Assembly: GCF_003334255.1 (NCBI RefSeq)
Contig: NZ_QOWU01000010.1
Reading direction: 5' to 3' (one strand)
DNA length: 64,000 bases
From: Escherichia coli
GTDB taxonomy: Bacteria > Pseudomonadota > Gammaproteobacteria > Enterobacterales > Enterobacteriaceae
The stretch's first letter is position 1. Each line of letters starts with the position of its first letter. Below, one piece after another: positions 41,314 to 56,332 of this stretch. A program made the translations under genes and the position numbers. The notes below the pieces were generated by a model that saw only the letters and a program-made list of their open reading frames with translations, did no database searches and was not told the origin of the DNA.

Positions 41314-41335
41314 GACGGCCTCTGCTGAGGCCGTC
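41314..41335. terminator. stem-loop between convergent pntB and tqsA
   Basis: GACGGCCTC-tgctg-AGGCCGTC hairpin immediately after pntB stop. Confidence 0.45.
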
Positions 41336-42240
41336 ACTCTTTATTGAGATCGCTTAACAGAACGGCGATGCTTTGACCTCCCGCTGTTTGTTCAAGCGCA
41401 ATTTTGACAATAATTGTCAACGGCACGGAAAGCAGCATACCCACCGGTCCTAACAACCATCCCCAAAAAATCAACGACAAAAATACCACCAATGTGGAAA
41501 GCCCCAGCCCACGCCCCATGATACGCGGCTCCAGAATATTGCCGAAGACCAGATTAATCAGCAGATATCCCGCCAGCACCAGCAACGCTTCGTAGAAGCC
41601 ATTAAACACCAGTACCTGAGCGATAGGGGGGATTGCCGCGAGGACTGAACCAATATTCGGGATGTAATTAAGCGCAAAGGCCAGCAATCCCCAGACAAAA
41701 GCGAAGCGAACATCGAGTGCGGCGAGCATCGCCCAGGCGACCAGGCCGGTGATGATGCTGATGGCTGTTTTCAGCACCAGATAATGAGAAACACTGTCAA
41801 TCGCACGTTGAATCGCCGCCATCCCTTCAACCGGACGCGCCATCATTTGCTGAAATTTTCCGGGCAATTGTGGCACTTCGAGCAGCATAAACAGCACCGT
41901 CAGCAGCAATAAAAATATTGATGACATGGCATTAGATAACTGCGTCAATAAGTTGGTGAGCAACGTCATCGCCGCGTTCGGATCAATATAATGCGCCAGC
42001 TGGTCAACTGAGACGTCAATCCCTACGCGTTGCAACAACGGTTCAAGCGCTTGCAGCGGCGTCATAATAGAGTTGCGATATTGCGGTAACGTCCGCGTCA
42101 ACTCGTTGAGCGCGGAACCCAGATAAGCTAATAGCAACACCATCGCCATCACGATGATGGTCATCAAAATCGACACCGCCAGTACACGCGGCACACGCCA
42201 GCGGACCATGTGTTGCACCAGCGGGTTAAGAATAACAGCA
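41334..42240 (-). pseudogene. tqsA: tqsA (AI-2 exporter) 3' fragment, separated from its 5' end by the island
   Basis: Frame encodes ...[26 protein letters not shown]... to the normal C-terminus (SDLNKE); upstream of codon AVI the frame hits TGA/TAA stops in island DNA. Confidence 0.85.
42232..42240. repeat. left copy of 9-bp direct repeat (att core / target duplication)
   Basis: ATAACAGCA; identical copy at 57098-57106; both lie within tqsA codons 43-46. Confidence 0.7.
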
Positions 42241-42367
42241 TTTTATCATTTAGTGTTTTTTGCTGTTTCATAATGTTTCAGGCTGTGCATTATGTTTTTG
42301 ATTATCAACAGATTTGTGATTTTCCTTGTTCCAGCTTGTTTCACGTTGTAGCCCTTTGTGCAACGAT

Positions 42368-42391
42368 CGGTGTAGTCACTGGTGTAGTCAC
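42368..42391. promoter_or_regulatory. tandem GGTGTAGTCAC repeat near left end (candidate integrase arm-type site)
   Basis: CGGTGTAGTCACTGGTGTAGTCAC; near-identical copy at 57001-57024 near the right end. Confidence 0.4.
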
Positions 42392-42415
42392 TTTTTCGTA
42401 AAGAGGGGGTAAAAC

Positions 42416-43645
42416 GTGAGCAGAGCAATGAACAAACTGAGCGATACCTTGCTAAGGAAACTTCATGGTAAGCCAGCGGAGAAAAACACGTTTTATAGTG
42501 ATGGCGGAAACCTGAGCGTGAAATATTTAACATCAGGGAAATTGACCTGGTATTTCACATACAGGGCCGGAACGGGAAGGGAGACACGACCCGAACGCAT
42601 TAAGCTGGGAAGTTATCCTGATCTGAGCCTGAAAGCAGCCAGGGAAAAAGCCGCACAGTGTCGCACATGGCTGGCTGAGGGGAAAAATCCACGTCATGAG
42701 ATGAATTACACCGTACAGGAAGCGTTAAAGCCCGTAACGGTTGGCGATGCGCTCACCTACTGGCTTGAGTATTACGTAAAGGAAAACCGCGTGGATTATA
42801 TCGCCCTGAAAAGGCGACTTAATAATCACGTAATACAGCAGATTGGTGCTATGCCGCTGGATAAATGCGAGCTACGGCACTGGCTGGCCTGTTTTGACCA
42901 GGTGGCAAAGCGAACGCCTGTTACTGCCGGATTCGTGCTACAGGCGTGCAAACAGGCGCTTAAGTTCTGCCGTAGGCGGCGCTATGCAATCAGCAACGTT
43001 CTGGACGATCTGAACGTGGCGGACGTTGGGAAAAAACCGGATATAAGCGAACGTGTCTTAAGTAACAAAGAACTTGGCGAATTATTGCAGGCACTGGACA
43101 AAAAAATATTTTCCCCTTACTACGTCGCGTTAATCCGCCTCCTGATTGTCTTCGGAGCCAGGACGGTAGAACTGAGGCTATCGGAGATCGGGGAGTGGGA
43201 TTTTACGGAAATGCTATGGACCGTTCCGAAGGAGCACAGCAAAACGAAGGTCGCAATATTCCGGCCCATACCGGAAGCGATCCTGCCGTTCGTCACGCAG
43301 CTGGTGGAGCAGAACAGGCACACGGGCTTATTGCTGGGGGAAGTGAAACAGGAGGCCAGCGTATCGCAGTATGGAAGATTAGCGCACAGGAGGCTTAATC
43401 ATCCTCACTGGTCACTGCATGACATCCGGCGCACCTTTACAACCATGCTGAACGATTTAGGCGTTGATCCGCATGTCGTGGAGCAGCTTACAGGTCATCA
43501 GATGCCAGGAATGCAGCGAGTTTATAATCATTCCCGTTATCTGGATGCTAAACGCAATGCGCTGGATATGTGGATGGAGCGGTTAGGGATACTGGCGGGA
43601 ACACATGAAAACGTAACCACGCTACCAGTAGCCAGAAGAAAATAA
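42416..43645 (+). CDS. int: tyrosine integrase, P4-type
   Basis: 409-aa ORF, GTG start after AGAGGGGG; N-terminal arm-binding domain, C-terminal catalytic region with HDIRRT and downstream Tyr (RVYNHSRY). Confidence 0.9.
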   Translation: MSRAMNKLSDTLLRKLHGKPAEKNTFYSDGGNLSVKYLTSGKLTWYFTYRAGTGRETRPERIKLGSYPDLSLKAAREKAAQCRTWLAEGKNPRHEMNYTVQEALKPVTVGDALTYWLEYYVKENRVDYIALKRRLNNHVIQQIGAMPLDKCELRHWLACFDQVAKRTPVTAGFVLQACKQALKFCRRRRYAISNVLDDLNVADVGKKPDISERVLSNKELGELLQALDKKIFSPYYVALIRLLIVFGARTVELRLSEIGEWDFTEMLWTVPKEHSKTKVAIFRPIPEAILPFVTQLVEQNRHTGLLLGEVKQEASVSQYGRLAHRRLNHPHWSLHDIRRTFTTMLNDLGVDPHVVEQLTGHQMPGMQRVYNHSRYLDAKRNALDMWMERLGILAGTHENVTTLPVARRK

Positions 43646-43832
43646 TTTTTTTCGTGTTTTTTCAGTATGCGCATACTGGATATGCGAACAGATACAACAT
43701 GCAACAATGAGCAACAATGCGGAACAACTACGAACAAGAGACGAAAAAGTGTACGGATTTATAAGTAGCTGATTTTTAATGTGTTACTGGTTTTTTATAC
43801 ACTAGCGAATCACTCTTTAAATAGCGAGAAAA

Positions 43833-43859
43833 AAGGCATGAAACAATATTTTATGCCTT
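43833..43859. terminator. stem-loop in int-alpA intergenic region (terminator-like, orientation ambiguous)
   Basis: AAGGCAT-gaaacaatatttt-ATGCCTT; T-run on the minus-strand side (TTTTTTCTCGC), weaker T-rich tract on plus side. Confidence 0.35.
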
Positions 43860-44019
43860 TGTATTAACATGAATTTAAATGATTTTATCCTGATTATTCC
43901 TGTTTCTGTAAACCATACGACCTCAACATTTGCCAACTCTGAATCATCCTGACACAATCAGACACATCCCAACGCAATAGAACACGAAATAACTCTTTAA
44001 GAAACGAAAGGGGGCAATA

Positions 44020-44208
44020 GTGTTAAGCACTGATCGGTTTATACGTGAAAAAGAATGCGAAAAGCTAACAGGCCTTAGCCGCTCATGCCGCTACCGCCTG
44101 GAAAAGGCCGGACAATTCCCATCACGTCGTAAACTTGGCGGTCGTTCCGTTGGCTGGTCTTTATCCGAGGTTCTGGCCTGGAAGGATAGCTGCAAGGCAG
44201 TTCATTAA
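44020..44208 (+). CDS. alpA: AlpA-family phage transcriptional regulator / excision activator
   Basis: 62-aa ORF, GTG start after AAGGGGG; MLSTDRFIREKECEKLTGLSRSCRYRLEKAGQFPSRRKLGGRSVGWSLSEVLAWK matches AlpA/Vis-type HTH proteins. Confidence 0.85.
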   Translation: MLSTDRFIREKECEKLTGLSRSCRYRLEKAGQFPSRRKLGGRSVGWSLSEVLAWKDSCKAVH

Positions 44209-44351
44209 TCACGCTGGCGGCACACAGCCGCCACACATCAATCATCTGAACACAGAGCTATAACCATGAAGATTGAATATACGCCAGAACGTGGGCGGGG
44301 ATTCGTTCGCCCTGGTGAGACTGGAAAACCACAAAATTGGGGTTTTTCAGG

Positions 44352-44388
44352 CATAAAAAAAGCGGCCCCGAAATGGAGCCGCCTTTCT
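44352..44388 (-). terminator. rho-independent terminator for minus-strand island transcript
   Basis: On minus strand: AAAGGCGGCTCC-atttc-GGGGCCGCTTT followed by T7. Confidence 0.45.
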
Positions 44389-44477
44389 GAACAGATAACA
44401 CGCTGCGCCGTTTGTGTGTGTGATCCCAAACATAAGCACGGGGATGATAGCCGCTATCAGGCTGGTGGGCAATGCAA

Positions 44478-44651
44478 TCAGTCTGGTTCAGTTCGTTGCC
44501 ATACCTGCAATGAGCGCTTTTCCCTGTACTCTTTAAGGAATTGCTCAAGGGCAAAAGCACATGGCGCGAATCTTTCTGATTCATGCTCTATCTTTCTGCG
44601 CCGTCTTTTCCGTGCCGGTGATAATGTTTTGGTCAATTCTTTATCGGTCAT
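44478..44651 (-). CDS. hypothetical small basic protein (57 aa)
   Basis: MTDKELTKTLSPARKRRRRKIEHESERF...; ATG preceded by AGGA; downstream of orf101 on same strand, before the minus-strand terminator. Confidence 0.3.
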   Translation of the reverse strand: MTDKELTKTLSPARKRRRRKIEHESERFAPCAFALEQFLKEYREKRSLQVWQRTEPD

Positions 44652-44708
44652 TGTGTTGTCCTGCATAGCAATGCGCCGTAATACCTCACACCACGGCGCT
44701 GATAGTGA

Positions 44709-45014
44709 TTATTCTGATTCTTTGGCCTTGCGGCGCTGTAGTTCTTCACGAGCGATGGCGATAAGTTGCCCGAGTTCTTCCGTAGCTTTAATACCAATTT
44801 TTTCCACTTGCGCCAATGCATCGAGAGAAGAAATCAGAGGATTTTCACTGCTTCCTTCTGCCTGGCGGCGGGCGATCTCCCCGCGCATGGCGGTTACTAT
44901 GAATCCGGCGTTGCTTTCGCCGTCCAGTTTTACGGATTCCATGCCATCAAAAGCATCATGTGGGATACGAATTGAAATCTGTTTTGATTTGTCGTTGATA
45001 GTGTTTTTTGCCAT
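44709..45014 (-). CDS. hypothetical protein (101 aa), candidate island regulator
   Basis: MAKNTINDKSKQISIRIPHDAFDG...; ATG preceded by AGGAGA; reads away from paired operator-like inverted repeats. Confidence 0.55.
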   Translation of the reverse strand: MAKNTINDKSKQISIRIPHDAFDGMESVKLDGESNAGFIVTAMRGEIARRQAEGSSENPLISSLDALAQVEKIGIKATEELGQLIAIAREELQRRKAKESE

Positions 45015-45036
45015 GTGCATTCTCCTAAACAAAAGA

Positions 45037-45112
45037 TGTGATTCAGTATACACAAAAAAGAATCACAAAAAACACTTGACCTGTGATTCAGTTGAATTTA
45101 ATTTAAATCACA
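45037..45112. promoter_or_regulatory. divergent promoter region with two operator-like inverted repeats
   Basis: TGTGATTC-N15-GAATCACA (45037-45067) and TGTGATTC-N16-AATCACA (45082-45112); TTGACC -35-like hexamer at 45076-45081. Confidence 0.55.
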
Positions 45113-45201
45113 CCTCAGTAAGAGGATGTAAACGACAACGCCCCGAACTGTTTGCGGCAGTAGCGGGGCGTCTAACCAAACCGTTAACAGGAGTAACGAT
45201 T

Positions 45202-45399
45202 ATGGCTGGAACACAGCATACCCCACGTCTGGCGCACACACAAACTGCCTTTGTGTGGCGTTTTCTGGCACTAAGTGCCGGAGAATCTCAAATCATCCAC
45301 GTAACCGCCTGGACGGAACGCGAAGCGCGTAGCCGTTGCCCGTCCGGTTGTGTTGCTGTATTCGCCGCCCGTATTCGTCAGGGGGTGTGCCATGCCTGA
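45202..45399 (+). CDS. small protein (65 aa), possibly Icd/Ash-like
   Basis: MAGTQHTPRLAHTQTAFVWRFLALSAGESQ...; ATG after AGGAG (45189-45193); first gene rightward of the operator region; family assignment from memory only. Confidence 0.45.
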   Translation: MAGTQHTPRLAHTQTAFVWRFLALSAGESQIIHVTAWTEREARSRCPSGCVAVFAARIRQGVCHA

Positions 45400-45712
45400 C
45401 ATGACCAATTACCAGTACCTGATTAATCCGCATTTTAACTGTGAGCATGATATTGCTAAAAAGGTTTATTCCGCTGCGGATGGGGCTACTGACAATATAT
45501 CAATGGCTGTTTCGTCAATTGGTAGCCTGATGTGGTATGCGTCAGAAAATAAGGAATATGACGAAAAGGCCATGCGCATTGATATGGGTAATATTGGTTT
45601 GTTACTGGCAATGCTTGGACATTTTGATATTTCGTTACGGTGCACCATTGAAAATGCCACAGATGCATTAAATGCTATAAAGAAAGCGAATACTGATTCA
45701 AATCGGGGATAA
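45392..45712 (+). CDS. hypothetical protein (106 aa)
   Basis: MPDMTNYQYLINPHFNCEHDIAKKVYSAADG...; start overlaps previous stop; no family recognised. Confidence 0.5.
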   Translation: MPDMTNYQYLINPHFNCEHDIAKKVYSAADGATDNISMAVSSIGSLMWYASENKEYDEKAMRIDMGNIGLLLAMLGHFDISLRCTIENATDALNAIKKANTDSNRG

Positions 45713-45718
45713 ATAATC

Positions 45719-46018
45719 ATGAGAACGTATTTATCTGGCTTTACTGCCAGCGGTTATGCACACCCCAAAATTATCCCCGGCGCTATTTATCTGGATAAGA
45801 ACGGTAACAGAGTAACGGTAAAAGAACTGATGTTTGACCGTGTGTATTTTATTCGTGATGGCTATTCATTTCATAGTTCGCTGAACGTGGAGATCTTTAT
45901 TAGCAGATTCCGGCGGGAAATCCCGCTTTCCAGAAATAACCATGTGTCATGTATGGATGTTGATAAAAAACTACAGGAACTGAAAAACATGATTGCCGCG
46001 TGGAGAGAGCAGAAATGA
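45719..46018 (+). CDS. hypothetical protein (99 aa)
   Basis: MRTYLSGFTASGYAHPKIIPGAIYLDKNGNRVTVKELMFDRVYFIRDGYSF...; stop overlaps primase start (ATGA). Confidence 0.5.
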   Translation: MRTYLSGFTASGYAHPKIIPGAIYLDKNGNRVTVKELMFDRVYFIRDGYSFHSSLNVEIFISRFRREIPLSRNNHVSCMDVDKKLQELKNMIAAWREQK

Positions 46019-47832
46019 AAAAAGCGCCAAATTTAAAACACCAGCCGCGTGACAAAATGACGGAAGTCATCATTTTTGCGGGTAGTGATGCGTGGGCACA
46101 TGCGAAGCAGTGGCAGGAACAGGACGGGCGACTGGCTGGCGATAACGTGCCACCTGTCTGGCTTGGAGAGCAACAACTTGCCGAACTGGACAACCTGCAA
46201 ATCGTACCGGACGGACGCTATCGCGTGCGTCTCTACCAGGCGGGGTTATTGCGTCCGGGGCTTGTTAATACCATCGGGCAGAAACTGGCAGCGGCAGGTG
46301 TCAGGGATGCTGATTATTACCCTGAAGGAATGCACAGCCAGAAACGGGAGAACTGGCGCGAATATCTGGAACGTGAGCGGGGAGAGCTGGCGGAAAAGAA
46401 AAAGGTAGTTGAACTGCCTGTAAAGAAAAAAGAGCGGGTAAAAGACGATAACGCTTCATCACTGGCGCTTAACCAGATGGGAGCAAGTCAACGCGGCGAA
46501 GTTCTCCTGGCACATTATGGCGGTGAACTGGCGATTCATGCTGACTCTGACACTGTTCACTATTACAACGGCGTTGTATGGGAGCCAGTACAGGATAAAG
46601 AATTACAGCGAGCTATGGCGCAGATTTTCATTGATGCGGAGATCAGCTATTCGCAGAACGCCATTAAATCGGCGGTCGATACCATGAAGTTAAGTTTGCC
46701 TGTAATGGGGAATACAGCCCGTAACCTGATTGGATTCAGTAACGGTGTTTTTGATACCCGGACAGGCGATTTTCGGGAGCATAACAAAAACGACTGGTTG
46801 TTAATTGCCAGTGAATTACCTTTCAGCCCACCAGCAGAGGGGGAAACGCTGGCAACACATGCGCCGAATTTCTGGAAGTGGTTACGCCGTTCGGTGGCTG
46901 AGAATGACCGCAAGGCGGATCGCGTACTGGCTGCATTATTCATGGTGCTGGCGAACCGGTACGACTGGCAGTTATTCATTGAGGTAACAGGTCCAGGGGG
47001 AAGTGGTAAAAGCGTGATGGCGGAGATTTGCACCATGCTGGCGGGTAAGGCCAACACGGTATCGGCAAGCATGAAGGCGCTGGAAGATGCCAGGGAACGC
47101 GCGTTAGTGGTTGGCTTTTCGCTGATTATCATGCCGGATATGACCCGTTACGCTGGTGATGGCGCAGGAATTAAGGCCATTACAGGCGGTGACAAGGTGG
47201 CAATCGACCCGAAGCATAAAGCCCCCTACTCAACACGCATTCAGGCGGTAGTGTTGGCGGTGAACAATAACGCCATGTCATTCAGTGACCGCAGCGGGGG
47301 GATTTCACGTCGTCGGGTGATATTCAATTTTTCGGAGGTTGTACCGGAAAACGAACGCGACCCCATGCTGGCAGAAAAAATAGAAGGAGAGCTGGCGGTT
47401 GTGATTCGCCACCTGCTTACTCGTTTTTCTGACCAGGACGCAGCTAAACGCCTGCTGTATGAGCAGCAGAAATCAGAAGAAGCTCTGGTGATAAAACGCG
47501 AGGGCGATTCGCTGGTGGACTTCTGCGGCTATCTCATGTCGTCGGTAATGTGTGATGGTCTGTTAGTGGGTAATGCCGAAATTATTCCGTTCAGTCCGCG
47601 CAGGTATCTTTATCACGCCTATCTGGCATATATGAGGGCACACGGATTCGGTAAACCTGTAACACTGACGCGCTTCGGTAAAGATATGCCGGGGGCAATG
47701 GCGGAATATGGCAGGGAGTATATGAAACGGAAAACGAAGCACGGTTTGCGTTCAAACGTGACACTGACGGAGGAATCAGAAGACTGGATGCCATCATGTG
47801 TATCGGTCACTAATGACGATAGCAAAAATTAA
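46015..47832 (+). CDS. P4 alpha-like replication protein (primase/NTPase, P-loop)
   Basis: 605-aa ORF with Walker A GPGGSGKS and Walker B-like region; followed immediately by TGTTCACC iteron cluster. Confidence 0.8.
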   Translation: MKKAPNLKHQPRDKMTEVIIFAGSDAWAHAKQWQEQDGRLAGDNVPPVWLGEQQLAELDNLQIVPDGRYRVRLYQAGLLRPGLVNTIGQKLAAAGVRDADYYPEGMHSQKRENWREYLERERGELAEKKKVVELPVKKKERVKDDNASSLALNQMGASQRGEVLLAHYGGELAIHADSDTVHYYNGVVWEPVQDKELQRAMAQIFIDAEISYSQNAIKSAVDTMKLSLPVMGNTARNLIGFSNGVFDTRTGDFREHNKNDWLLIASELPFSPPAEGETLATHAPNFWKWLRRSVAENDRKADRVLAALFMVLANRYDWQLFIEVTGPGGSGKSVMAEICTMLAGKANTVSASMKALEDARERALVVGFSLIIMPDMTRYAGDGAGIKAITGGDKVAIDPKHKAPYSTRIQAVVLAVNNNAMSFSDRSGGISRRRVIFNFSEVVPENERDPMLAEKIEGELAVVIRHLLTRFSDQDAAKRLLYEQQKSEEALVIKREGDSLVDFCGYLMSSVMCDGLLVGNAEIIPFSPRRYLYHAYLAYMRAHGFGKPVTLTRFGKDMPGAMAEYGREYMKRKTKHGLRSNVTLTEESEDWMPSCVSVTNDDSKN

Positions 47833-47846
47833 ACTTATGGAATAAC

Positions 47847-48076
47847 TGTTCACCACTGTTCACCCTGTCATAAATATCTTTTGTATCAGTATGTTATAGG
47901 GTGAACAGTTATTTATGAACTGTTCACCAAACTATTCACTGTTCACCTTTTTGATTGTTTATTGAGCTTCAAGGGTGAACAGTGGTGAATAGTTGGTGAA
48001 TAGTTTTTGTGAAACTGTTCACCCCTTAACATTATGAATTAAAAGATAAAATATCAAAAGGTGAACAGGTGAAGGG
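47847..48076. repeat. iteron cluster (TGTTCACC / GGTGAACA), candidate origin of replication
   Basis: At least 8 exact 8-mers in both orientations (47847, 47857, 47899, 47921, 47940, 47974, 48016, 48060) plus degenerate GGTGAATA copies in an AT-rich 230-bp non-coding stretch. Confidence 0.8.
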
Positions 48077-48119
48077 TTAAAACGCAAAAATTTTAATTTA
48101 CTGCTGTGAGATAAAGCCT

Positions 48120-48365
48120 ATGACAGCGAAGCACACAAAAAAATCACAATCGCACGCCCTTGATTTGACGGAACACTGGTTAAGGGTGTCGATAAAAATC
48201 ATCGACCGCAACGCCGGGGAAGGATATGCGAAAGCACATCCCGAACTGATTAGCTCATTCATGACAACGGCAGCTGCAAACTTTGCCACGCTGACAGAAC
48301 GGGAGATTGCCGAAGCGGAACAGGTGACAACCATCAACGTTAAAACCGGAGAGCAGACAGCATGA
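48120..48365 (+). CDS. hypothetical protein (81 aa)
   Basis: MTAKHTKKSQSHALDLTEHWLRVSIKIIDRNAG...; stop overlaps start of the SSB-like gene. Confidence 0.45.
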   Translation: MTAKHTKKSQSHALDLTEHWLRVSIKIIDRNAGEGYAKAHPELISSFMTTAAANFATLTEREIAEAEQVTTINVKTGEQTA

Positions 48366-48772
48366 CAGCACAGATAGCAGCTTACGGGCGGCTGGTGGAC
48401 GACCCGCAGGTAAAACAGACCAGTAAGGGCACACCGATGACGCTGGCGCGTATGGCGGTATCGTTGCCATGTAGTCAGGCGCAGGATGGGCAGGCGACGT
48501 TATGGCTATCGGTCATCGCATTTGGTAAGCAGGCCGACTTCCTGGCTAAACATCAAAAAGGCGACGTTGCCAGCGTATCCGGCACGATGCAGGTCAGCCA
48601 GTGGACCGGACAGAACGGGGAAACGCGGCAGGGTTATCAGGTTATTGCAGACAGCGTAATCAGTGCCCGTGCGGCACGTCCTGGCGGGAACAGACGCAAA
48701 ACCACAGGCACACAGGGTAATCAGCCACCAGCGGGAGGCGATGACCCTTACGGTGACGGTATTCCGTTCTGA
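48362..48772 (+). CDS. single-stranded DNA-binding protein-like (OB fold with acidic C-terminal tip)
   Basis: 136-aa ORF with Gly/Gln-rich linker and C-terminal DDPYGDGIPF resembling the SSB DDDIPF tail. Confidence 0.7.
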   Translation: MTAQIAAYGRLVDDPQVKQTSKGTPMTLARMAVSLPCSQAQDGQATLWLSVIAFGKQADFLAKHQKGDVASVSGTMQVSQWTGQNGETRQGYQVIADSVISARAARPGGNRRKTTGTQGNQPPAGGDDPYGDGIPF

Positions 48773-48782
48773 GGGGGTGGCG

Positions 48783-49055
48783 ATGGTACATGACCGCATA
48801 GCGGAAGAACTCGAGGCGAAAGGCTTTTACCGGAGGGCGGCGGCGCGATGGGGTGAAGTCATGCTGCTGGTGGAGACAGACAAGGAACGGCATCAGGTTA
48901 CGATGCGACGGCTGGAATGTTCCAGGAAGGCACAGAAGCCACCGGAGCCGCCGGATAACTTCGGAGACCTGAGAAAGGCAGTAGATCGCACTTATGCTGA
49001 AATGGGTATAGATGGTGTAAGCGATGAAATATGGCGTAATTACCCAGACAGCTAA
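48783..49055 (+). CDS. PerC-family transcriptional regulator-like protein
   Basis: 90-aa ORF MVHDRIAEELEAKGFYRRAAARWGEVMLLVETDKERHQVTMRRLEC...; the AExLExKGxxRRAAxRWxEVM pattern is typical of PerC/Pch proteins; ATG after GAGGGGG. Confidence 0.55.
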   Translation: MVHDRIAEELEAKGFYRRAAARWGEVMLLVETDKERHQVTMRRLECSRKAQKPPEPPDNFGDLRKAVDRTYAEMGIDGVSDEIWRNYPDS

Positions 49056-49060
49056 TCAAC

Positions 49061-49084
49061 AGCCGGAGAAATCCGGCTTTTTTT
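49061..49084 (+). terminator. rho-independent terminator
   Basis: AGCCGGAG-aa-ATCCGGCT hairpin followed by T7. Confidence 0.65.
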
Positions 49085-49179
49085 GCACCAGTTGAAACGG
49101 TATGGCGCATTACCGGGTTTTCGTCACGGTCAGGCATAGTTACTATCTGAAACAAACAGACACAACAGAGGAAAAAACA

Positions 49180-49404
49180 ATGCCGATGAAATTTGATGAG
49201 ATATTAAAACAGCGTGATAAATACCATGCTGACAACATGGAGACGATGAGCATCAATGATTACCGCGCATTCCTGGAGACGGGCGCACTGATTGAAAAGG
49301 ATCAGCATGGTTTTGTGAGATGTGCTCTGTCCGGTGAAATGCTGGCGGTAAATCCTGAACAGATAGATGCATTGATAGAATTTCTGAAAGGGATCAGGGA
49401 CTGA
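49180..49404 (+). CDS. hypothetical protein (74 aa)
   Basis: MPMKFDEILKQRDKYHADNMETMSINDYRAFLETG...; ATG after AGGAAAAAA; followed by a terminator. Confidence 0.45.
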   Translation: MPMKFDEILKQRDKYHADNMETMSINDYRAFLETGALIEKDQHGFVRCALSGEMLAVNPEQIDALIEFLKGIRD

Positions 49405-49414
49405 GCACGCATAC

Positions 49415-49436
49415 AGCCGGAGCAATCCGGCTTTTT
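49415..49436 (+). terminator. rho-independent terminator (near-duplicate of 49061-49084)
   Basis: AGCCGGAG-caa-TCCGGCT hairpin followed by T5. Confidence 0.65.
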
Positions 49437-49696
49437 GTCATTTTTTGTAAATTATTTGTTCGTGGTTGTTCCACGTTGTTCACTGACAGGATCGGCATAT
49501 TTTACCCGAACTGAATCATGAGTATTCTCGCCCGTGGTGCCAGGACGCTGGGGCCACTTTCCCGCCTGTTAATGTGCTCGCCAATATTCATTACCAGGCG
49601 GGAAAACGATCGGTGCGATTGCTGATTTCCTTATGAAAAACGGTTGAGTTTTTGCCGCGTCCTGGAGTTCCTTACTTAACCCCAGGACTTTTTTTT

Positions 49697-50854
49697 ATGC
49701 CGAGAATAATCGAATTACGCCAGCAGAAAACCGCCATTAAAAATCAGATGCGCGACATGCTGGAGAACGCGGAAAAAGAAAACCGCAGCCTTAACGATGC
49801 AGAGGGCGCAAAATTTGACGAATTACGCGCTAAAGCTGAATCCCTCGATAAAGACATTTCCCGCCTTGAAGCCATTGCAGACGAAGAGCGCAGCAAGCCA
49901 GGTAAAAGCAGCCAGACCACTGACCCGGCAGAACTCCGCAACTACATCCTGACAGGTGAAACCCGCGCATTAAGTACAGGCGTTCCCGCTGATGGTGGTT
50001 ATACCGTTATCCCCGAACTGAACACCGAAATCATGCGAATGCTGACGGATGAATCCACCATGCGCCGCATCTGTACCGTGAAGAAAATCAGCAGCAACGA
50101 GTTTAAGCAGCTTGTTTCCGCTGGCGGTGCGACCGTTAACCACGGTGAAGAGGGTAAGACACGCGAACAGACCAGCACCCCGCAGATTAACGAGGTGAGC
50201 ATTAAGCTGTATCCGGTCTATGCGTACCCGCGCACCACACAGGAAATCGTGGATTTTTCCGATGTGGACATCCTTTCATGGCTGACGGGTGAGATTGGCG
50301 ACACCTTCACGGAAACCGAAGAAAGCGATCTGGTTGTGGGCGACGGTGACAAAAAAGCAAAAGGTTTTTTATCCGTACCCCGTGCAGAGAAGAACGACAA
50401 AGAGCGTGATTTTGGTACGTTGCAGGTAATTAAACCTTCCGAATCTCTGGCGTGGACATCTGCGGACCCGCTGATCGACCTGAAATTTGCATTACGTAAA
50501 AAATACCGCAAAAACGCGGTCTGGGTGGTTAACTCCACGACGGCGGCAAAACTTCAGAAGGTGAAGAACGCGAACGGTGATTACATCTGGCGCGACCGTT
50601 TACAGGCGGGTGATCCTGATACGTTGCTGGGCCTTCCGGTCGAATATCTGGAGTTTATGCCTGATAACGTTATTGCCCTGGGTGACTTCAAACGCGGTTA
50701 CTACATTGTTGATCACGAAACAGGTGTTCGCACCAGACCGGACAACCTCACAGAGCCGGGCTTCATCAAAATTTTCACGCAGAAATATTTAGGCGGTGGC
50801 GTGGTGGATTCGAACGCGATCAAGATTCTGGAACTGCCACAGGACGACGATTAA
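49697..50854 (+). CDS. major capsid protein, HK97 fold, with N-terminal coiled-coil (delta/scaffold-like) region
   Basis: 385 aa from ATG 49697 (MPRIIELRQQKTAIKNQMRDMLENAEKENRSLNDAEGAKFDELRAK...); capsid-family core follows. Confidence 0.85.
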   Translation: MPRIIELRQQKTAIKNQMRDMLENAEKENRSLNDAEGAKFDELRAKAESLDKDISRLEAIADEERSKPGKSSQTTDPAELRNYILTGETRALSTGVPADGGYTVIPELNTEIMRMLTDESTMRRICTVKKISSNEFKQLVSAGGATVNHGEEGKTREQTSTPQINEVSIKLYPVYAYPRTTQEIVDFSDVDILSWLTGEIGDTFTETEESDLVVGDGDKKAKGFLSVPRAEKNDKERDFGTLQVIKPSESLAWTSADPLIDLKFALRKKYRKNAVWVVNSTTAAKLQKVKNANGDYIWRDRLQAGDPDTLLGLPVEYLEFMPDNVIALGDFKRGYYIVDHETGVRTRPDNLTEPGFIKIFTQKYLGGGVVDSNAIKILELPQDDD

Positions 50855-50864
50855 CAGCATACAG

Positions 50865-50893
50865 AAGGGGCTTAAAAGCCCCTTTAGTGTTTT
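50865..50893 (+). terminator. stem-loop after capsid gene (attenuator/terminator)
   Basis: AAGGGGCTT-aaa-AGCCCCTT followed by TAGTGTTTT. Confidence 0.5.
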
Positions 50894-51466
50894 ATGGGTG
50901 AAAAAATTATGAAGAGTATGGAAATCCGGTCATCGGAAATCACCACCAGCGCCAGCAACACGCTTACAGGCTACGTTGTTCGCTGGGATAAGCTTTCAGA
51001 GCTGCTATGGGGGGAGTTTTACGAAAAATTCCAGCGGGGAGCGTTTACTGAATGGCTTGCGGCGGGTAATGACGTTCGCGGCCTGTATGAGCATGACCAC
51101 AGCATGTTGCTGGGGCGTACCCGTTCCGGCACGCTGAAACTGGAAGAGGACGAAACAGGGTTACGCTTTGAACTGACCCCACCGGATACCAGTACAGGGC
51201 GCGACGTTATCGAACTGGTTAAGCGTGGGGACATCTCGGGGATGAGCTTTGGCTTTCGCTCCCGTAAGGATGTATGGGATACCACAACAGATCCATGCGT
51301 GCGCACCGTGCTGGTGGCGGAACTGTACGAAATTACCGTTACATCGGTACCGGCTTACCCCGATTCCGGCGTGGAGCTGGCCCGCCGTTCCCTGTATGAG
51401 CAGCACCCCGAAAAAATGCCGCGTGCGGATAATCGCCGCTGGTGGGTGGATTTAGCGGGGGTGTGA
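50894..51466 (+). CDS. prohead maturation protease, HK97 family
   Basis: 190-aa ORF (true start may be ATG 50909); GAFTEWLAAGNDVRGLYEHDHSMLLGRTRSGTLKLEEDETGLRFELTPPDTSTGRD...GDISGMSFGF matches HK97-type prohead protease. Confidence 0.8.
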   Translation: MGEKIMKSMEIRSSEITTSASNTLTGYVVRWDKLSELLWGEFYEKFQRGAFTEWLAAGNDVRGLYEHDHSMLLGRTRSGTLKLEEDETGLRFELTPPDTSTGRDVIELVKRGDISGMSFGFRSRKDVWDTTTDPCVRTVLVAELYEITVTSVPAYPDSGVELARRSLYEQHPEKMPRADNRRWWVDLAGV

Positions 51467-51467
51467 T

Positions 51468-52679
51468 ATGTGGCTTTTCAGAAGAAAAAAAGAGCAGCGC
51501 AGCATGACGCTTGATGAATTTATGGCGCTGGCTGGCACATCGAACACGGGGGCGGGTGAGTACGTATCATCGGGGACAGCGGAATCACTGCCCGCCGTCA
51601 TGAACGCCGTGACGGTCATCTCTGAGGCGGTGGCTACCATGCCGTGTTACCTGTACCTGGTACGCAATGAGAAGGGGAAGGAGGCCCGCGAGTGGCTTGA
51701 TTCTCATCCGGTCGATCACATCCTCAACGAGCGCCCGAACGCGTGGCAGACTCCCTACCAGTTTAAGCGAATGATGATCCGCCACTGCCTGTTAAACGGT
51801 AATGCTTATGCGGTGATTCAGTGGGGGCGTGATGGTTTTCCGGTGGCTTTACATCCTTACCCGCCGCAGTCGGTGAACGTGGAGCAGACAGGCGAACACA
51901 ACTGGCGCTACTGCATCACTGACGCCTACACCGGAAACACCCGCAACTATTTACCGTGGGAGGTTCTCCACCTTCGTTACTCCACGGATGACGGTTTTAT
52001 GGGGCGCTCACCTGTAACCATCTGCCGCGAATCGCTGGGGCTTGGGCTGGCCCAACAACGCCACGGCGCGAGCGTGATGCGTGATGGCATGATGGCGGCA
52101 GGGGTTATCACGTCAGGCGAATGGCTGGACGGCGTGAAGGGCAAACAGGCATTAGCCGCACTGGAACGCTACAAAGGGGCCAGAAACGCCGGAAAAACGC
52201 CCATCCTTGAAGGGGGTATGAGCTATCAGCAGCTGGGCATGAGTAATCAGGATGCTGAATGGCTGGCCTCCCGTCGCTTCACCATTGAAGACATCGCCCG
52301 AATGTTCAACGTCTCGCCGATTTTTCTGCAGGAATACAGCAACAGCACCTACAGCAATTTCAGCGAGGCAAGCCGCGCATTTCTCACCATGACAATGCGC
52401 CCGTGGCTGGCGAACTTTGAGCAGCAGATAAAAAACGCCCTGCTGGTGGCCTCGCCTGTACCTGGTATCCGGTATCAGGTGGAGTTTGACAGCGCGGACC
52501 TGTTACGGGCCACACCTGGCGAACGCTTTGCCACCTATGAACGCGGCATCAAATCCGGCGTTATGTGCCCGAACGAAGCCCGCGAACGTGAAGGGCTGTC
52601 CCCGCGTGATGGTGGTGATGAGTTCAGCCAGGCATGGAAACAGGAAGTAAAAATCAGCGAGGGAGAAAAACCGGAATGA
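51468..52679 (+). CDS. portal protein, HK97 family
   Basis: 403-aa ORF; N-terminal region ...MPCYLYLVRNEKGKEAREWLDSHPVDHILNERPNAWQTPYQFKRMMIRHCLLNGNAYAV typical of HK97-like portals. Confidence 0.8.
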   Translation: MWLFRRKKEQRSMTLDEFMALAGTSNTGAGEYVSSGTAESLPAVMNAVTVISEAVATMPCYLYLVRNEKGKEAREWLDSHPVDHILNERPNAWQTPYQFKRMMIRHCLLNGNAYAVIQWGRDGFPVALHPYPPQSVNVEQTGEHNWRYCITDAYTGNTRNYLPWEVLHLRYSTDDGFMGRSPVTICRESLGLGLAQQRHGASVMRDGMMAAGVITSGEWLDGVKGKQALAALERYKGARNAGKTPILEGGMSYQQLGMSNQDAEWLASRRFTIEDIARMFNVSPIFLQEYSNSTYSNFSEASRAFLTMTMRPWLANFEQQIKNALLVASPVPGIRYQVEFDSADLLRATPGERFATYERGIKSGVMCPNEAREREGLSPRDGGDEFSQAWKQEVKISEGEKPE

Positions 52680-53014
52680 ACATAGGGCGACTGCGTGACA
52701 GGGTAACGATTCAGACCCTGAAACAGACCAGGGATATAACCGGCGAAATACTCGAAACGTGGGAGGACGGTCACACACTCTGGGCAAGCGTGAACATGAT
52801 CAGCAGCAAGGAGGCCATTTCATCGGGTGCAGAGCTGGCGATTGGTACCGTAAGGATCTGGATACGGTACCGGAAGGACATCAATGCCACCAGCCGGATA
52901 AAGGTCAGTACGGGGCCGCTGGCGGGGCGTGTACTGAATATCATCGGGCAGCCGCTGCCGGATGCCGCCAGGACACGCCTTGAAATTCTTTGTCGTGAGG
53001 GCGCGGAAAAATGA
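52676..53014 (+). CDS. head-tail adaptor / head closure protein
   Basis: 112 aa from ATG 52676 overlapping portal stop (MNIGRLRDRVTIQTLKQTRD...). Confidence 0.65.
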   Translation: MNIGRLRDRVTIQTLKQTRDITGEILETWEDGHTLWASVNMISSKEAISSGAELAIGTVRIWIRYRKDINATSRIKVSTGPLAGRVLNIIGQPLPDAARTRLEILCREGAEK

Positions 53015-53307
53015 CAGAAGAACTTATCACCCTGGAAGAAGTGAAACTCCATTGCCGCATCGATGGCGACGAGGAAGACCAGTTAATCAGCGGATACATC
53101 GCCGCATCGCTTGAGGCGTGCCAGATACACATAGGCAGGCGCTTTGATGACGGGCTGGAGTTCACGCCAGCCATAAAGATTGGCTGCATGATGTTTATCG
53201 CTCACCTGTATGAAAATCGCCAGATTGTCGCGGATAACGCAAAAACACGCGTACCCATGACGATTGGTGCACTCTGGACGGCTTACCGTGATGTGGGGGT
53301 GTACTGA
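53011..53307 (+). CDS. gp6-like head-tail connector protein
   Basis: 98-aa ORF MTEELITLEEVKLHCRIDGDEEDQLISGYIAASLEACQIHIGRRF... Confidence 0.65.
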   Translation: MTEELITLEEVKLHCRIDGDEEDQLISGYIAASLEACQIHIGRRFDDGLEFTPAIKIGCMMFIAHLYENRQIVADNAKTRVPMTIGALWTAYRDVGVY

Positions 53308-53747
53308 TGCCGTGGCAACCATTAAGACGATGCACAGAACCAGGCTGTAACAGGCGCGTGAAGTCCGGCAAGTGTGAGGAGCACAGGCGGGCGGCATGGC
53401 GTGCAGAGGATGCCAGACGAGGACACCGCCGCGCGCGTGGGTACTCCAGACAGTGGGACAAATACCGCGCCATGTATCTGAGTAAAAACCCGTTATGCGT
53501 GCGATGCCTTGAGAAGGGGATATATACGCCCGCCGTGGTGGTGGATCACATTATCCCGATTAATGGCGGTGATGATGTTCTCTTCTGGCCCGAATGGAAC
53601 CATCAGCCATTGTGCCAGGCGTGCCATAACCAGAAAACGAAATGGCTTGATCCGGCAACAAAAAGCAAGCGTGCCGCAGGTGGATTTCGTGAAGAGGAAG
53701 AACGGGCCGCTAACCGCAATAACTGGATGTATGACGCTGATGAATGA
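53307..53747 (+). CDS. HNH endonuclease (packaging-associated)
   Basis: 146-aa ORF with Cys pairs (CTEPGCNRRVKSGKCEEH, CVRC) and HNH core VVDHIIPINGG...NHQPLCQACHNQKT. Confidence 0.85.
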   Translation: MPWQPLRRCTEPGCNRRVKSGKCEEHRRAAWRAEDARRGHRRARGYSRQWDKYRAMYLSKNPLCVRCLEKGIYTPAVVVDHIIPINGGDDVLFWPEWNHQPLCQACHNQKTKWLDPATKSKRAAGGFREEEERAANRNNWMYDADE

Positions 53748-53913
53748 GCGGGAACAAAACCGCCTTATCCGTGGACTTATAAGGCAGCGTGACGCATGGA
53801 AGACACAGGAAACAGGGCATAAAGATAAAGCGTCAGGACGCGCAGAACGCATCACAGCGAAGCGATTAACCGACCGTGACCGCGAGGTTATGGAATGTTT
53901 CCGCAATCGCTGA
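53740..53913 (+). CDS. possible small charged protein (57 aa), translationally coupled to HNH gene
   Basis: ATG overlaps HNH stop; MNEREQNRLIRGLIRQRDAWKTQETGHKDKASGRAERITAKRLTDRDREVMECFRNR; no RBS evidence. Confidence 0.25.
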   Translation: MNEREQNRLIRGLIRQRDAWKTQETGHKDKASGRAERITAKRLTDRDREVMECFRNR

Positions 53914-54035
53914 TGAGGCTGTATGACGGGGTGGGGGGCGTTTTCAGGACAAACCCGACCCCGCCGGGCACCGACCGCCTCCTCAAATTTTTATGCACGG
54001 GAATTTTTTGAAAAATAATCTGACGAAAAATAAGC
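53914..54035. other. candidate cos/packaging-initiation region between HNH and terS
   Basis: Non-coding stretch with G/C-rich blocks (ACGGGGTGGGGGGCG, CCCGACCCCGCCGGGCACCGACCGCC) directly upstream of terS; HNH-cos-TerS arrangement is typical of HK97-like cos packaging. Confidence 0.3.
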
Positions 54036-54392
54036 ATGGCAAGACCACCGAAAGCCCCCGCCTACCTGGATGACATCGCCGTGAAGCAGTGGCGGGAAAA
54101 ATCGCGGCAGCTTGCGGAACGGGGAGACCTGACCCCCGCCGACTGGAGCAATCTGGAACTGTATTGTGTCAACTACTCCATTTACCGGAAAGCCGTCGCA
54201 GACCTTGCGGCGCGCGGGTTCAGCATTGTTAACAGTCAGGGCGGCGAGAGCAGAAACCCCGCATTAAGCGCGAAATCAGACGCTGAAAGGGTGATGATAA
54301 AAATGGCCTCCTTGCTCGGTTTTGACCCGATAAGCCGCCGTAAAAACCCACCGGAAACAGAAGAAGAGGACGAGCTTGACCGCCTGGAATAA
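54036..54392 (+). CDS. terminase small subunit (P27-like)
   Basis: 118-aa ORF MARPPKAPAYLDDIAVKQWREKSRQLAERGDLTPADWSNLELYCVNYSIYRKA...; overlaps terL start. Confidence 0.7.
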   Translation: MARPPKAPAYLDDIAVKQWREKSRQLAERGDLTPADWSNLELYCVNYSIYRKAVADLAARGFSIVNSQGGESRNPALSAKSDAERVMIKMASLLGFDPISRRKNPPETEEEDELDRLE

Positions 54393-56037
54393 GTACGCAG
54401 AAGACGTAAAAACGGGCAAAATTCAGGCCTGTAAACGGTTAAAACAGGCCGTTAAACGGTACTTTTCGGACCTTAAAAGCCCCCTTTACACGTTCGATCG
54501 TGAGGTTGTGGATCGGTTTATTGCCTTTTCCAGGGTGTGCCCGCACGTAAAAGGGCCGATGCGTGGCAGACCCATTGAGCTGGAGCCGTGGCAGCAGTTC
54601 GCCTTTGCGTGCATCCTCGGCTTTAAGGTTAAGGCCACCGGACGGCGCAAATATACGAGCGCCTTTATCGAAGTGCCGCGCAAAAATGCTAAATCAACGA
54701 CCGCCGCGATTCTGGCTAACTGGTTTCTGATTATGGAGAACGGTCAGCAGGATATTTACACCGCAGCGGTGAGCCGTGACCAGGCGAGGATCGTATTTGA
54801 TGATGCGCGTCAGATGTGCATTTTATCCCGACCGTTACGCAGGCGGGTGAATATTCAGGCGCATAAGGTGATACACCCGAAAACCAACAGCCTGTTAAAG
54901 CCGCTGGCAGCAAAAGCGGCAACTATCGAGGGCACAAACCCCAGTCTTTCTATCGTGGACGAATACCACCTACACCCCGACAACGGCGTATATTCTGCGC
55001 TTGAACTGGGGATGGGGGCACGTCCCGAAGGGCTGTTATTTGCCATTACCACATCGGGAAGTAACGTCGTTTCAGCCTGTAAGCAGCATTATGATTATTG
55101 CTGCCAGATCCTGGACGGCGAAGAGGTTAACGAATCGCTTTTTGTGCTGATTTACGAACTGGACGACGAAAACGAGGTTGATGATCCGGAGATGTGGATA
55201 AAGGCGAACCCTAATATCGATGTTTCCGTGGATCGTGAAAAACTGGCCTCAACCATTCAGAAAGCGCGGGGTATTCCGTCGCAATGGGTGGAGATGATGA
55301 CAAAGCGATTTAATATCTGGTGTCAGGGGACTACCCCGTGGATGGGTAATGGTGCATGGGCTGAGTGTGCCGGAACGTTCACGGAGGAAGATTTACACGG
55401 TCAGGAGTGTTACGCGGGGCTGGACTTATCATCAACCAGCGATATTTCCAGCGTGTGCTATGCCTTTCCGGTCGGTAAAACCATTATGATGATTTCCCGT
55501 CATTATCTGCCGGAGTTCCAGCTACAGAACCCCGCCAATAAAAACCGCGCTGTCTATCGTCAGTGGGCTAAAGCAGGCTGGATACGCACAACGCCTGGCG
55601 ACTGCATTGATTACGACCGGATCAGAGATGACATCATGCAGGACGCGGAGAAATTTAATATCAGGCTGGTGGGCTTTGATACGTGGAACGCCACGCATCT
55701 CAGAACGCAATTACAGGGGGCAGGTTTTGAGGTGGAGCCGTTCCCGCAAACCTACCTCAGATTCAGTCCGGCGGCGAAATCGTTCGAAGTTTTTGTTAAC
55801 CGCAGGGTGATTGTGCATCGTGGCGATCCGGTGTTGTCCTGGTCGATGAGTAACGTCGTGATGCAGAGTGACGCGAACGCCAATATCAAGCCGAACAAGA
55901 AAAAATCACCGAACAAGATAGACCCGAGCGTGGCGGCGCTGATGGCGTTTGGTACATTCCAGGCAGAGCATGAGGATTTTGCTTTTGATATAAGCGACAG
56001 CCACCGCCAGAAACTGGAAGAATTTAGCGGGGTGTAA
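54376..56037 (+). CDS. terminase large subunit
   Basis: 553-aa ORF with ATPase P-loop region (VPRKNAKSTTAA) and C-terminal nuclease-type domain. Confidence 0.85.
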   Translation: MTAWNKYAEDVKTGKIQACKRLKQAVKRYFSDLKSPLYTFDREVVDRFIAFSRVCPHVKGPMRGRPIELEPWQQFAFACILGFKVKATGRRKYTSAFIEVPRKNAKSTTAAILANWFLIMENGQQDIYTAAVSRDQARIVFDDARQMCILSRPLRRRVNIQAHKVIHPKTNSLLKPLAAKAATIEGTNPSLSIVDEYHLHPDNGVYSALELGMGARPEGLLFAITTSGSNVVSACKQHYDYCCQILDGEEVNESLFVLIYELDDENEVDDPEMWIKANPNIDVSVDREKLASTIQKARGIPSQWVEMMTKRFNIWCQGTTPWMGNGAWAECAGTFTEEDLHGQECYAGLDLSSTSDISSVCYAFPVGKTIMMISRHYLPEFQLQNPANKNRAVYRQWAKAGWIRTTPGDCIDYDRIRDDIMQDAEKFNIRLVGFDTWNATHLRTQLQGAGFEVEPFPQTYLRFSPAAKSFEVFVNRRVIVHRGDPVLSWSMSNVVMQSDANANIKPNKKKSPNKIDPSVAALMAFGTFQAEHEDFAFDISDSHRQKLEEFSGV

Positions 56038-56050
56038 TGAGGTCAGCAGC

Positions 56051-56332
56051 ATGACAGAAGCCGAAATAACGGGATTAATCCGCCGCGTTGCCGGAATCAG
56101 CCAGCAGGCTGACGAACAGGCCACGCAGCCGGACAGCGTGACAGCCGAAAACTATGCGCGTGTTGTTGCTGAGGTGATGCGCCGTGATGGTATAGAACTT
56201 AATGGCGTGGATATGCGCAACATACGAACCAGAGTTCTTGAGTTGCTGGCCTACCGTCGCCGCGTGGAGATGTATCGGGAGAAGGAGAAAATAACGTACC
56301 ACTGGAAGAAGCCGGAGCGGTTGCGGCGGTAA
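56051..56332 (+). CDS. hypothetical protein (93 aa)
   Basis: MTEAEITGLIRRVAGISQQADEQATQPDSVTAENYARVVAEVMRRDGIEL...; ATG after GAGGT, 14 bp downstream of terL stop. Confidence 0.5.
   Translation: MTEAEITGLIRRVAGISQQADEQATQPDSVTAENYARVVAEVMRRDGIELNGVDMRNIRTRVLELLAYRRRVEMYREKEKITYHWKKPERLRR

Follow-up and report, generated by a model that had tools for sequence, protein, structure and literature searches.

Introduction

Two islands of Escherichia coli, EcCI042 and EcCIK1516, are known to use tqsA as attachment gene with the att core ATAACAGCA (Fillol-Salom et al., 2018, ISME J, Table S1; PMC6092414). EcCI042 is an 11 kb element in E. coli 042 (FN554766.1, 1832521-1843554), and EcCIK1516 measures 11.4 kb (Fillol-Salom et al., 2018; PMC6092414). 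The E. coli PICI sites in the same table are mostly intergenic (ycfD-phoQ, cspD-clpS, lysR-smrA, frmR-thiM and yejM-luxR); EcCICFT073, for example, is found at ycfD-phoQ with the core GGACATATTT, and tqsA is the only single-gene host site listed (PMC6092414). The criteria of these authors separate PICIs from P4 by the genes they carry, and AlpA-dependent excision of PICIs has been described (PMC6092414). The life cycle of the capsid-forming PICIs (cf-PICIs) was described by Alqurainy et al. (bioRxiv 10.1101/2022.09.08.507074); these elements use six E. coli attB sites, four of them common to classical PICIs (bioRxiv 10.1101/2022.09.08.507074).

Disruption of tqsA has been recorded independently of the PICI literature. 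Bobay et al. (2013) place tqsA among the core genes broken by prophage integration, and the abstract of Mageeney et al. (2020, NAR) puts it forward as a possible case of regulated gene integrity, with islands of 11, 15 and 16 kb in the supplement (Eco33.11.tqsA, Eco557.15.tqsA and Eco282.16.tqsA). The cryo-EM structure of TqsA assigns Thr7-Phe29 to helix H1 and Ala31-Trp57 to helix H2, and contacts between H1 helices are vital for the pentamer (PMC9475539). Deletion of tqsA increases intracellular AI-2, lsr expression, motility and biofilm formation (Herzberg, 2006, as summarised in PMC9475539).

Here we describe an island in tqsA within a 64-kb stretch of E. coli DNA, which we refer to as the window. 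Its site, its core, its element family and the disruption of the gene are all already published, and the case is an ordinary one. The island has the att core ATAACAGCA and the attachment gene tqsA in common with EcCI042 and EcCIK1516, whose int/att module is that of the 11-kb island of strain 300709. These are classical 11-kb PICIs with a capsid and decoration pair and without portal, protease or large terminase, whereas the window holds a 14.9-kb capsid-forming island. Its genes stand in the same order as those of EcCIEDL933, the prototype cf-PICI: int and alpA, then replication, then capsid, protease, portal and connectors, and finally HNH, terS and terL, with tail genes absent.

A ~15.4-kb O157:H7 island (strain PNUSAE146131, not EDL933 itself) has a packaging module 97.5% identical to that of the window. 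It lies between roxA (ycfD) and phoQ at the core GGACATATTT, an intergenic position where it disrupts nothing. Its integrase is 91% identical overall, its arm repeats are GGTGTAGTTAA rather than the GGTGTAGTCAC of the window, and its replication gene encodes a DUF927 protein instead of a primase. One satellite cargo is thus carried on two int/att modules, one harmless and one gene-disrupting. P4 and P4-like elements (e.g. CP4-57, with IntA at ssrA) have an integrase of the same Arm-DNA-bind_3 plus tyrosine recombinase architecture; the window integrase shares ~55% identity with proteins that bear the annotation CP4-57 integrase, and the island also encodes an AlpA/Vis-type regulator and a primase. 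Whereas P4-like elements typically use and restore tRNA or tmRNA genes, the island uses a protein gene and does not restore it.

Results and discussion

The island splits tqsA at a 9-bp core

A sequence-only reading of the window had proposed that an island separates a 3' fragment of tqsA (41334-42240) from the first 46 codons (57098-57234), 14.9 kb away, with a 9-bp core at both junctions and island-encoded stops on either side. All of these points are borne out. Translation of 41334-42272 (minus strand) gives a TqsA portion that begins at Ala44-Val45-Ile46 and ends in DLNKE*, with TGA and TAA just upstream in island DNA; the 3' fragment itself (41334-42240, minus strand) comprises codons 44-344 and the stop, the attL core included, as judged from its translation and its identity to K-12. 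Translation of 57040-57234 (minus strand) gives TqsA residues 1-46, ending in FIAVI, followed by eight island codons (YNLFHITR*), so that the open 5' fragment (57070-57234, minus strand) is made up of codons 1-46 (57098-57234) and this short island-encoded tail. The break falls after codon 46 (Ile46). When the fragments are fused over a single core, 1035 of 1035 nucleotides are identical to K-12 tqsA.

The core, ATAACAGCA, overlaps tqsA codons 44-46 (GCT GTT ATT). Alignment to K-12 tqsA places its plus-strand copies at 42232-42240 (attL) and 57098-57106 (attR), and the distance between them is 14,857 bp (island 42241-57097, plus strand, one core excluded). Since ATAACAGCA occurs four times in the 64-kb window, against 0.69 copies expected, the 9-mer by itself is weak evidence. 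The attachment-site call is settled by alignment of the junctions with the uninterrupted K-12 gene, a check suggested along with the original reading: at the left junction the match to tqsA includes the core and ends there, and at the right junction it starts with the core. Chance and assembly error are ruled out because 247 of the 5,426 complete genomes of E. coli have the identical junction, and no observation speaks against the split-gene structure. The automatic PGAP annotation agrees, in that the same 3' stretch is called 'tqsA, incomplete, missing N-terminus' in strains G6/7, 300709 and RM10386 and the homologous 5' stretch in relatives is called a pseudogene 'missing C-terminus'.

The attB site therefore lies inside a protein gene that the island does not restore, and not at the restored 3' end of a tRNA or tmRNA gene as in P4-like elements. 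Scanning the entire window for Rfam families and tRNAs gave no tRNA, no tmRNA and no other RNA match, so an RNA gene plays no part at the attachment site.

Consequence of the insertion for tqsA

Mapped onto the cryo-EM structure, the break after Ile46 lies in the middle of helix H2, and residues 1-46 comprise H1 together with half of H2. Past the junction, in-frame starts are limited to GTG at Val50 and ATG at Met53. We found no Shine-Dalgarno-like sequence before either codon, and no in-frame fusion or restoring sequence is supplied to the 3' fragment by the island. No promoter-like site pointing to the 3' fragment was detected on the minus strand of the island left end in a crude consensus search, which weak outward transcription may escape. 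Because the break is in mid-H2, the island-side frames are closed by stops, the internal starts have no evident promoter or ribosome-binding site, and no replacement coding sequence is provided, tqsA is almost certainly inactive (null) throughout integration of the island. The native tqsA promoter could still give rise to a 54-aa peptide.

The initial reading had left room for translation of the 3' fragment from an internal start, at the cost of the first TM helix. The inactivation it proposed stands, and the cost of an internal start would be higher than it supposed, namely H1 plus most of H2. Read-out from the island could in principle express a partly functional, N-truncated exporter from Val50 or Met53, which lie in frame 10 and 13 codons past the junction, and an open antisense frame (42246-42533), annotated by PGAP as a hypothetical protein in relatives, runs toward the junction in the tqsA frame. 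The missing promoter-like and Shine-Dalgarno-like signals speak against such expression, as does the nature of the product, which would be without H1, the pentamer contact, and without most of H2. The antisense frame ends in two stops and is probably no gene: among relatives just the close ones have it open, which conservation of their attP DNA explains, and in more distant sister islands it is broken. We treat it as spurious, and we consider a functional truncated exporter extremely improbable.

For carriers of the island we infer a loss of AI-2 export. Three other AI-2E family proteins are found in E. coli (YhhT, YdiK and PerM), and since these remain the phenotype of tqsA loss may be mild. 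A second, unrelated lesion is informative here. A nonsense allele of tqsA, S298*, is common to 57 complete genomes that, by their strain names, appear to be the ST1193 clone. We had considered that S298* in the ST1193 3' fragment might be decay after insertion, but rejected this, as the allele is found both with the island and in uninterrupted tqsA (strain DS566-1) and is independent of the island. The distribution of the S298* allele indicates that tqsA is dispensable in nature.

Gene content of the island

The island starts with int (42416-43645; all genes are on the plus strand unless stated otherwise), which encodes a tyrosine recombinase of 409 aa with P4-like architecture (Pfam Arm-DNA-bind_3, 1e-17, and Phage_integrase, 7.5e-16; PHROG 1 integrase, 6e-72). 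It is followed by a gene for an AlpA-type regulator/excisionase of 62 aa (44020-44208; PHROG 2790 'excisionase and transcriptional regulator', 1.7e-17), whose homologue in sister islands carries PF05930 Phage_AlpA. The sole minus-strand gene of the island belongs to the YlcI/YnfO family (44709-45053; NCBIfam NF041551, 4e-18). A DUF4222 gene (45719-46018; annotation of the G6/7 homologue, PHROG 285) precedes the primase/replication gene pri-rep (46000-47832, 610 aa; PHROG 864 DNA primase, 1e-193) and the single-stranded DNA-binding protein gene ssb (48362-48772; PHROG 44, 1.3e-39). An accessory gene encodes a PerC-family transcriptional activator (48783-49055; PHROG 994 and 10396 'transcriptional activator'; 'PerC family' in the PGAP annotation of the G6/7 homologue).

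Eight packaging genes (49652-56037) follow in the order stated for cf-PICIs of Proteobacteria. They encode an HK97-type major capsid protein (49652-50854, annotated from ATG 49697 in relatives; PHROG 10, 4e-89), a prohead protease (50894-51466; PHROG 80, 8e-67), a portal protein (51468-52679; PHROG 12, 1e-116), a head closure protein (52676-53014; TIGR01563, 1e-14, and PHROG 25), a head-tail adaptor/connector (53011-53307; TIGR01560, 2e-26, and PHROG 40), an HNH endonuclease (53307-53747; PHROG 144, 8e-45), the small terminase TerS (54036-54392; PHROG 83, 3e-39) and the large terminase TerL (54376-56037; PHROG 9, 2e-179). A search of 20 island ORFs against PHROGs gave zero matches in the tail and lysis categories, in keeping with the absence of lysis genes and of a complete tail module from cf-PICIs, and the island has no room left for further large genes.

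The remaining features of a cf-PICI are also found. The 14,857 bp between the cores fall within the range of ~10-18 kb, and int at the left end is followed by the alpA regulation module and the replication module. The packaging genes are distinct from those of real phages: among the 50,697 phage records of INPHARED no phage exceeds 78% identity or covers more than ~31% of the packaging module. The best match (77% identity over 31%) comes from a record of 16.5 kb labelled 'induced prophage', which may be a cf-PICI in its own right. The closest match to the whole island is found in E. coli strain G6/7, again in tqsA, with 99.8% identity over 97% of the length. As gene content and gene order match the cf-PICI definition, we conclude with high confidence that the insert in tqsA is a cf-PICI that was integrated by its own tyrosine integrase through attP x attB recombination at ATAACAGCA. 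The description of the element as a site-specific island with a P4-like integrase holds, and we refine it to a phage satellite of the cf-PICI type.

The lack of tail and lysis genes, together with secondary damage in some copies of the island (e.g. the one in strain 2013C-4187, into which IS600 has inserted), might also suggest a decayed prophage remnant that is fixed and immobile in the chromosome, tqsA then being simply a dead gene. In the window, however, the packaging, replication and integration ORFs are all full-length and match their family profiles nearly end to end, and the gene content and order are those of an experimentally mobilised cf-PICI family. Near-identical islands (97.8-99.8%) in unrelated chromosomal backgrounds, the uniformity of the integrases and the recovery of a sibling with the same int/att module as a circle (both described below) likewise argue for a mobile element. 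We regard an immobile remnant as highly improbable.

Excised forms and predicted life cycle

The attP junction predicted for the tqsA site (right arm, one core, left arm) has one match in IMG/VR and one in a metagenome collection. In the IMG/VR contig (L022) a terminal repeat of 119 bp indicates a circle of ~10,979 bp, and its identity to the 11-kb island of strain 300709 is 99.95%. The contig from the metagenomes (L023) is a related island in circularly permuted form. Both contigs have a single core and no tqsA flanks; the core is likewise present once in empty chromosomal sites. Excision at ATAACAGCA thus does take place in elements that carry this int/att module, as seen for the 11-kb sibling; a search of viromes and metagenomes for the attP junction of the 14.9-kb form recovered just this sibling.

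We propose the following cycle. Int would recombine the attP of the island with the chromosomal attB, both of which carry ATAACAGCA. The steps after integration are modelled on the PICI literature. The integrated island would be quiescent until a helper phage turns on alpA; Int would then excise the island and Pri-Rep would replicate its DNA. The island is expected to package itself into its own small capsids by means of HNH, TerS and TerL, with tails alone borrowed from the helper. Precise excision would regenerate wild-type tqsA.

Occupancy of tqsA in E. coli

A survey of genomes for the same attB had been suggested with the initial reading, and was carried out on 5,426 complete genomes of E. 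coli with a 401-bp probe across the empty tqsA site. Of the 5,423 genomes that could be scored, 5,167 have an uninterrupted site and 256 a split one. The tqsA-int left junction of the window is present in 247 of the 5,426 genomes (~4.6%), and its right junction in 233 of the 256 split genomes. About one in 20 complete E. coli genomes is thus without an intact tqsA because of a satellite in the gene, and these satellite-occupied genomes include O26, O103 and O111 STEC as well as many ST1193 strains. The tqsA genotype of K-12 should not be assumed in AI-2 or biofilm work on natural isolates.

The gene was rebuilt in eight occupied genomes, among them one O26, one O157:H7 and one ST1193 strain as well as the ExPEC strain PCN033. 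All eight break at the same core. The rebuilt alleles differ from K-12 tqsA by 0, 10, 14 or 21 nt, which means that the chromosomal backgrounds differ. The islands measure 10,967, 14,690-14,869, 15,254-15,294 or 16,136 bp and range from the 11-kb classical PICI to cf-PICIs of 14.7 to 15.3 kb, one island (strain 2013C-4187) bearing the IS600 insertion. Four or more chromosomal backgrounds and three or more island variants are thus represented at tqsA, and the integrases are at least 99% identical among themselves; the occupancies are independent integrations by one integrase lineage.

These observations bear directly on the proposal of Mageeney et al. (2020), in which tqsA is among 19 candidates newly put forward for regulated gene integrity, supported by a tight integrase clade, the same Pfam domain and several independent disruptions. 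The pattern by which they recognise disruption is present at this locus, as the backgrounds, variants and integrase clade just described are combined with the lack of any restoring sequence. The likeness to the regulated elements of comK, sigK, spsM, mlrA and hlb is that an integrase clade repeatedly disrupts a conserved domain without restoration. Occupancy of tqsA would on this view be an adaptive, reversible switch, like the elements of comK, sigK and mlrA, in which the host or the satellite benefits because AI-2 export goes off upon integration and returns with excision. In its favour, in seven of the eight sampled occupied genomes the fragments would rejoin as an intact tqsA ORF, the exact core would make excision scarless, and excised circles exist for the 11-kb sibling.

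Against this, the element at tqsA is a helper-dependent satellite, unlike the regulated elements, and its excision is normally accompanied by cell lysis: PICI excision is coupled to lytic growth of the helper phage, so that restoration of tqsA normally comes in a cell that dies. Intergenic sites serve the sister integrases that have the same arms, and gene disruption is therefore not a property of the family. The S298* allele, present with and without the island in 57 complete genomes, argues that the gene is dispensable, and a regulatory link between AI-2 and alpA is neither known nor visible in the sequence. We therefore consider an adaptive switch very doubtful. The broader notion that occupancy is a selected trait, in which abolished AI-2 export would be the advantage and rare survivable excision the means of reversal, is very doubtful too. 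Were it true, the satellite would alter the quorum-sensing and biofilm state of its host, and this could be to the gain of the satellite, e.g. through altered encounters with helper phages, or of the host. The matter as a whole is minor and opens no new question.

Attachment region, integrase and sister sites

The left attP arm contains two 10-bp-phased TTGTTCCACG-like units (42326-42349, plus strand), a candidate site for a recombination-directionality factor or regulator, and two direct GGTGTAGTCA repeats (42369-42390, plus strand) that are candidate arm-type integrase sites. In the right attP arm (56969-57023, plus strand) a TTGTTCCACGTTGT unit (56969-56982) is followed by two GGTGTAGTCA repeats (57002-57023), and the right-arm module as a whole repeats that of the left arm directly, though imperfectly, over 76 nt (76% identity). 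The window has four exact copies of GGTGTAGTCA, all at the two island ends and two per arm. From this arrangement the GGTGTAGTCA repeats are likely to be arm-type integrase sites, and the TTGTTCCACG-like 10-bp-phased units may be bound by a regulator, AlpA or another. Units of this kind recur twice in the island: between int and alpA as four tandem 10-bp TTGTTNNNNN units (43694-43737, minus strand), and as two further 10-bp TTGTTCCACG units upstream of the capsid operon (49456-49479, plus strand).

The integrase was said in the initial reading to be of the P4 type, and its domains agree with this: an N-terminal Arm-DNA-bind_3 (DUF4102) domain and a C-terminal Phage_integrase domain, as expected of P4-like tyrosine integrases. 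R249, K276, H335, R338, H361 and Y370 are invariant across six aligned homologues and presumably form the catalytic R-K-H-R-H-Y set. The integrase of strain 300709 differs from that of the window at one of 409 residues. A scan of one genome per species found no relative of the integrase, and every match of at least 84% identity comes from E. coli; the tqsA-type integrase thus appears to be confined to this species.

Related integrases are found at other sites. The sister integrase at roxA (ycfD)-phoQ is 91% identical, one downstream of the LysR-type gene abgR 84%, one at cspD 75%, and those at rcnR/rcnB in E. coli and Salmonella 68% and 63%. The sister islands share the left-arm start TTTTATCAtTTAGTG, which in each follows directly after a different core; for roxA-phoQ the core was derived from both junctions as GGACATATTT. 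The sister sites, derived independently here, agree with those in Table S1 of Fillol-Salom et al. (2018). The initial reading had called integration into an ORF uncommon for P4-type integrases. This can be put in context, since the enterobacterial PICI integrase group uses no tRNA genes at all and its E. coli sites are mostly intergenic, tqsA being the one single-gene site in the published table.

The tqsA-type and roxA-phoQ-type integrases are a natural pair for mapping what shifts the target of a PICI integrase from an intergenic to an intragenic site. Their identity is 79% over residues 1-100 and 95% over residues 101-409. There are 33 fixed amino-acid differences between the two types, of which 12 lie within residues 119-259 and none beyond residue 259. 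The other 21 are in the arm-binding domain, and the arm repeats change in parallel (GTCAC to GTTAA); in sister islands GGTGTAGTTAA stands at the position of the GGTGTAGTCA repeats, alongside the diverged N-terminal domain of Int.

Integrase specificity and attachment-site architecture

The O157:H7 strain PNUSAE146131 carries a cf-PICI (capsid-forming phage satellite; locus L020, 1834-17290) whose cargo is nearly equal to that of the window's island (42241-57097), with a packaging module that is 97.5% identical, and which is located between roxA (ycfD) and phoQ at the core GGACATATTT. Its integrase is 91% identical to the tqsA-type integrase of the window. Fixed differences separate the two types at 33 residues: the arm-binding domain accounts for 21 of them and residues 119-259 for the other 12, with none past residue 259. 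The differences in the arm-binding domain co-vary with the arm repeats (GTCAC versus GTTAA). The two integrases are a natural pair with which to map attB specificity.

Both attP arms of the window's island carry one 76-nt module as a direct repeat, in which TTGTTCCACG-like units at 10-bp phase are followed by two copies of GGTGTAGTCA. Sites with the repeat module or TTGT units are found at 42326-42390, 43694-43737, 49456-49479 and 56969-57023; the second of these consists of four TTGT units in tandem in the int-alpA gap, the third of two units upstream of the capsid operon. The occurrence of TTGT units in the attP arms as well as at these two positions suggests that a single DNA-binding protein would serve both recombination and transcription, AlpA being a possible candidate.

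Two contigs of the 11-kb tqsA-type PICI, L022 (IMG/VR UViG 3300045988_152974) and L023 (metagenome contig CYGL01000683.1), are circular or permuted and have an attP with a single core. L022 comes from a viral-contig collection, which fits with satellite DNA that was packaged or replicating in the sampled environment.

Accessory genes

The island carries a gene for a PerC-family transcriptional activator (48783-49055), which is of relevance for the island copies in O26, O103 and O111 STEC strains. The stretch from alpA to the Icd-like/DUF4222 genes (44266-45399) is unlike the closest island, that of strain G6/7, which is 167 bp shorter and aligns in two pieces. It is similar to the islands of O26 and 300709, where a YlcI/YnfO gene is encoded on the opposite strand. 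The pattern suggests that the accessory region has undergone mosaic exchange. A 377-aa plus-strand ORF listed here looks spurious.

An antisense open frame (42246-42533, minus strand) overlaps the start of int and the arm repeats. It shares the frame of the tqsA 3' fragment, ending in two stop codons ahead of the attL core, and in relatives a 60-aa version has been annotated by PGAP (WP_001332680.1). More distant sister islands have the frame interrupted, and it is unlikely to be a real gene.

Other lesions in tqsA and in the island

Exactly the same nonsense allele of tqsA, S298*, is present in 57 complete genomes, which seem to be the ST1193 clone. In the ST1193 strain MDBZ1340 (locus L014, 1846-1914) the allele accompanies the cf-PICI in tqsA, and in strain DS566-1 (L021) it lies in an uninterrupted gene, so a lineage with pandemic success tolerates the loss of tqsA, independently of the island.

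Of the 256 genomes in which the tqsA site is split, nine do not have the window's integrase junction. Among these are 11A20CPO008 and CFSAN004176: in one, the 401-bp empty-site probe matched in two pieces over 609 bp, which implies an extra stretch of ∼ 200 bp; in the other, only half of the probe matched. These are probably tqsA disruptions of other kinds.

In the tqsA cf-PICI of strain 2013C-4187 (locus L018, 8673-9829), IS600 is inserted in the small gene that precedes the capsid operon, an example of secondary decay of the island itself.
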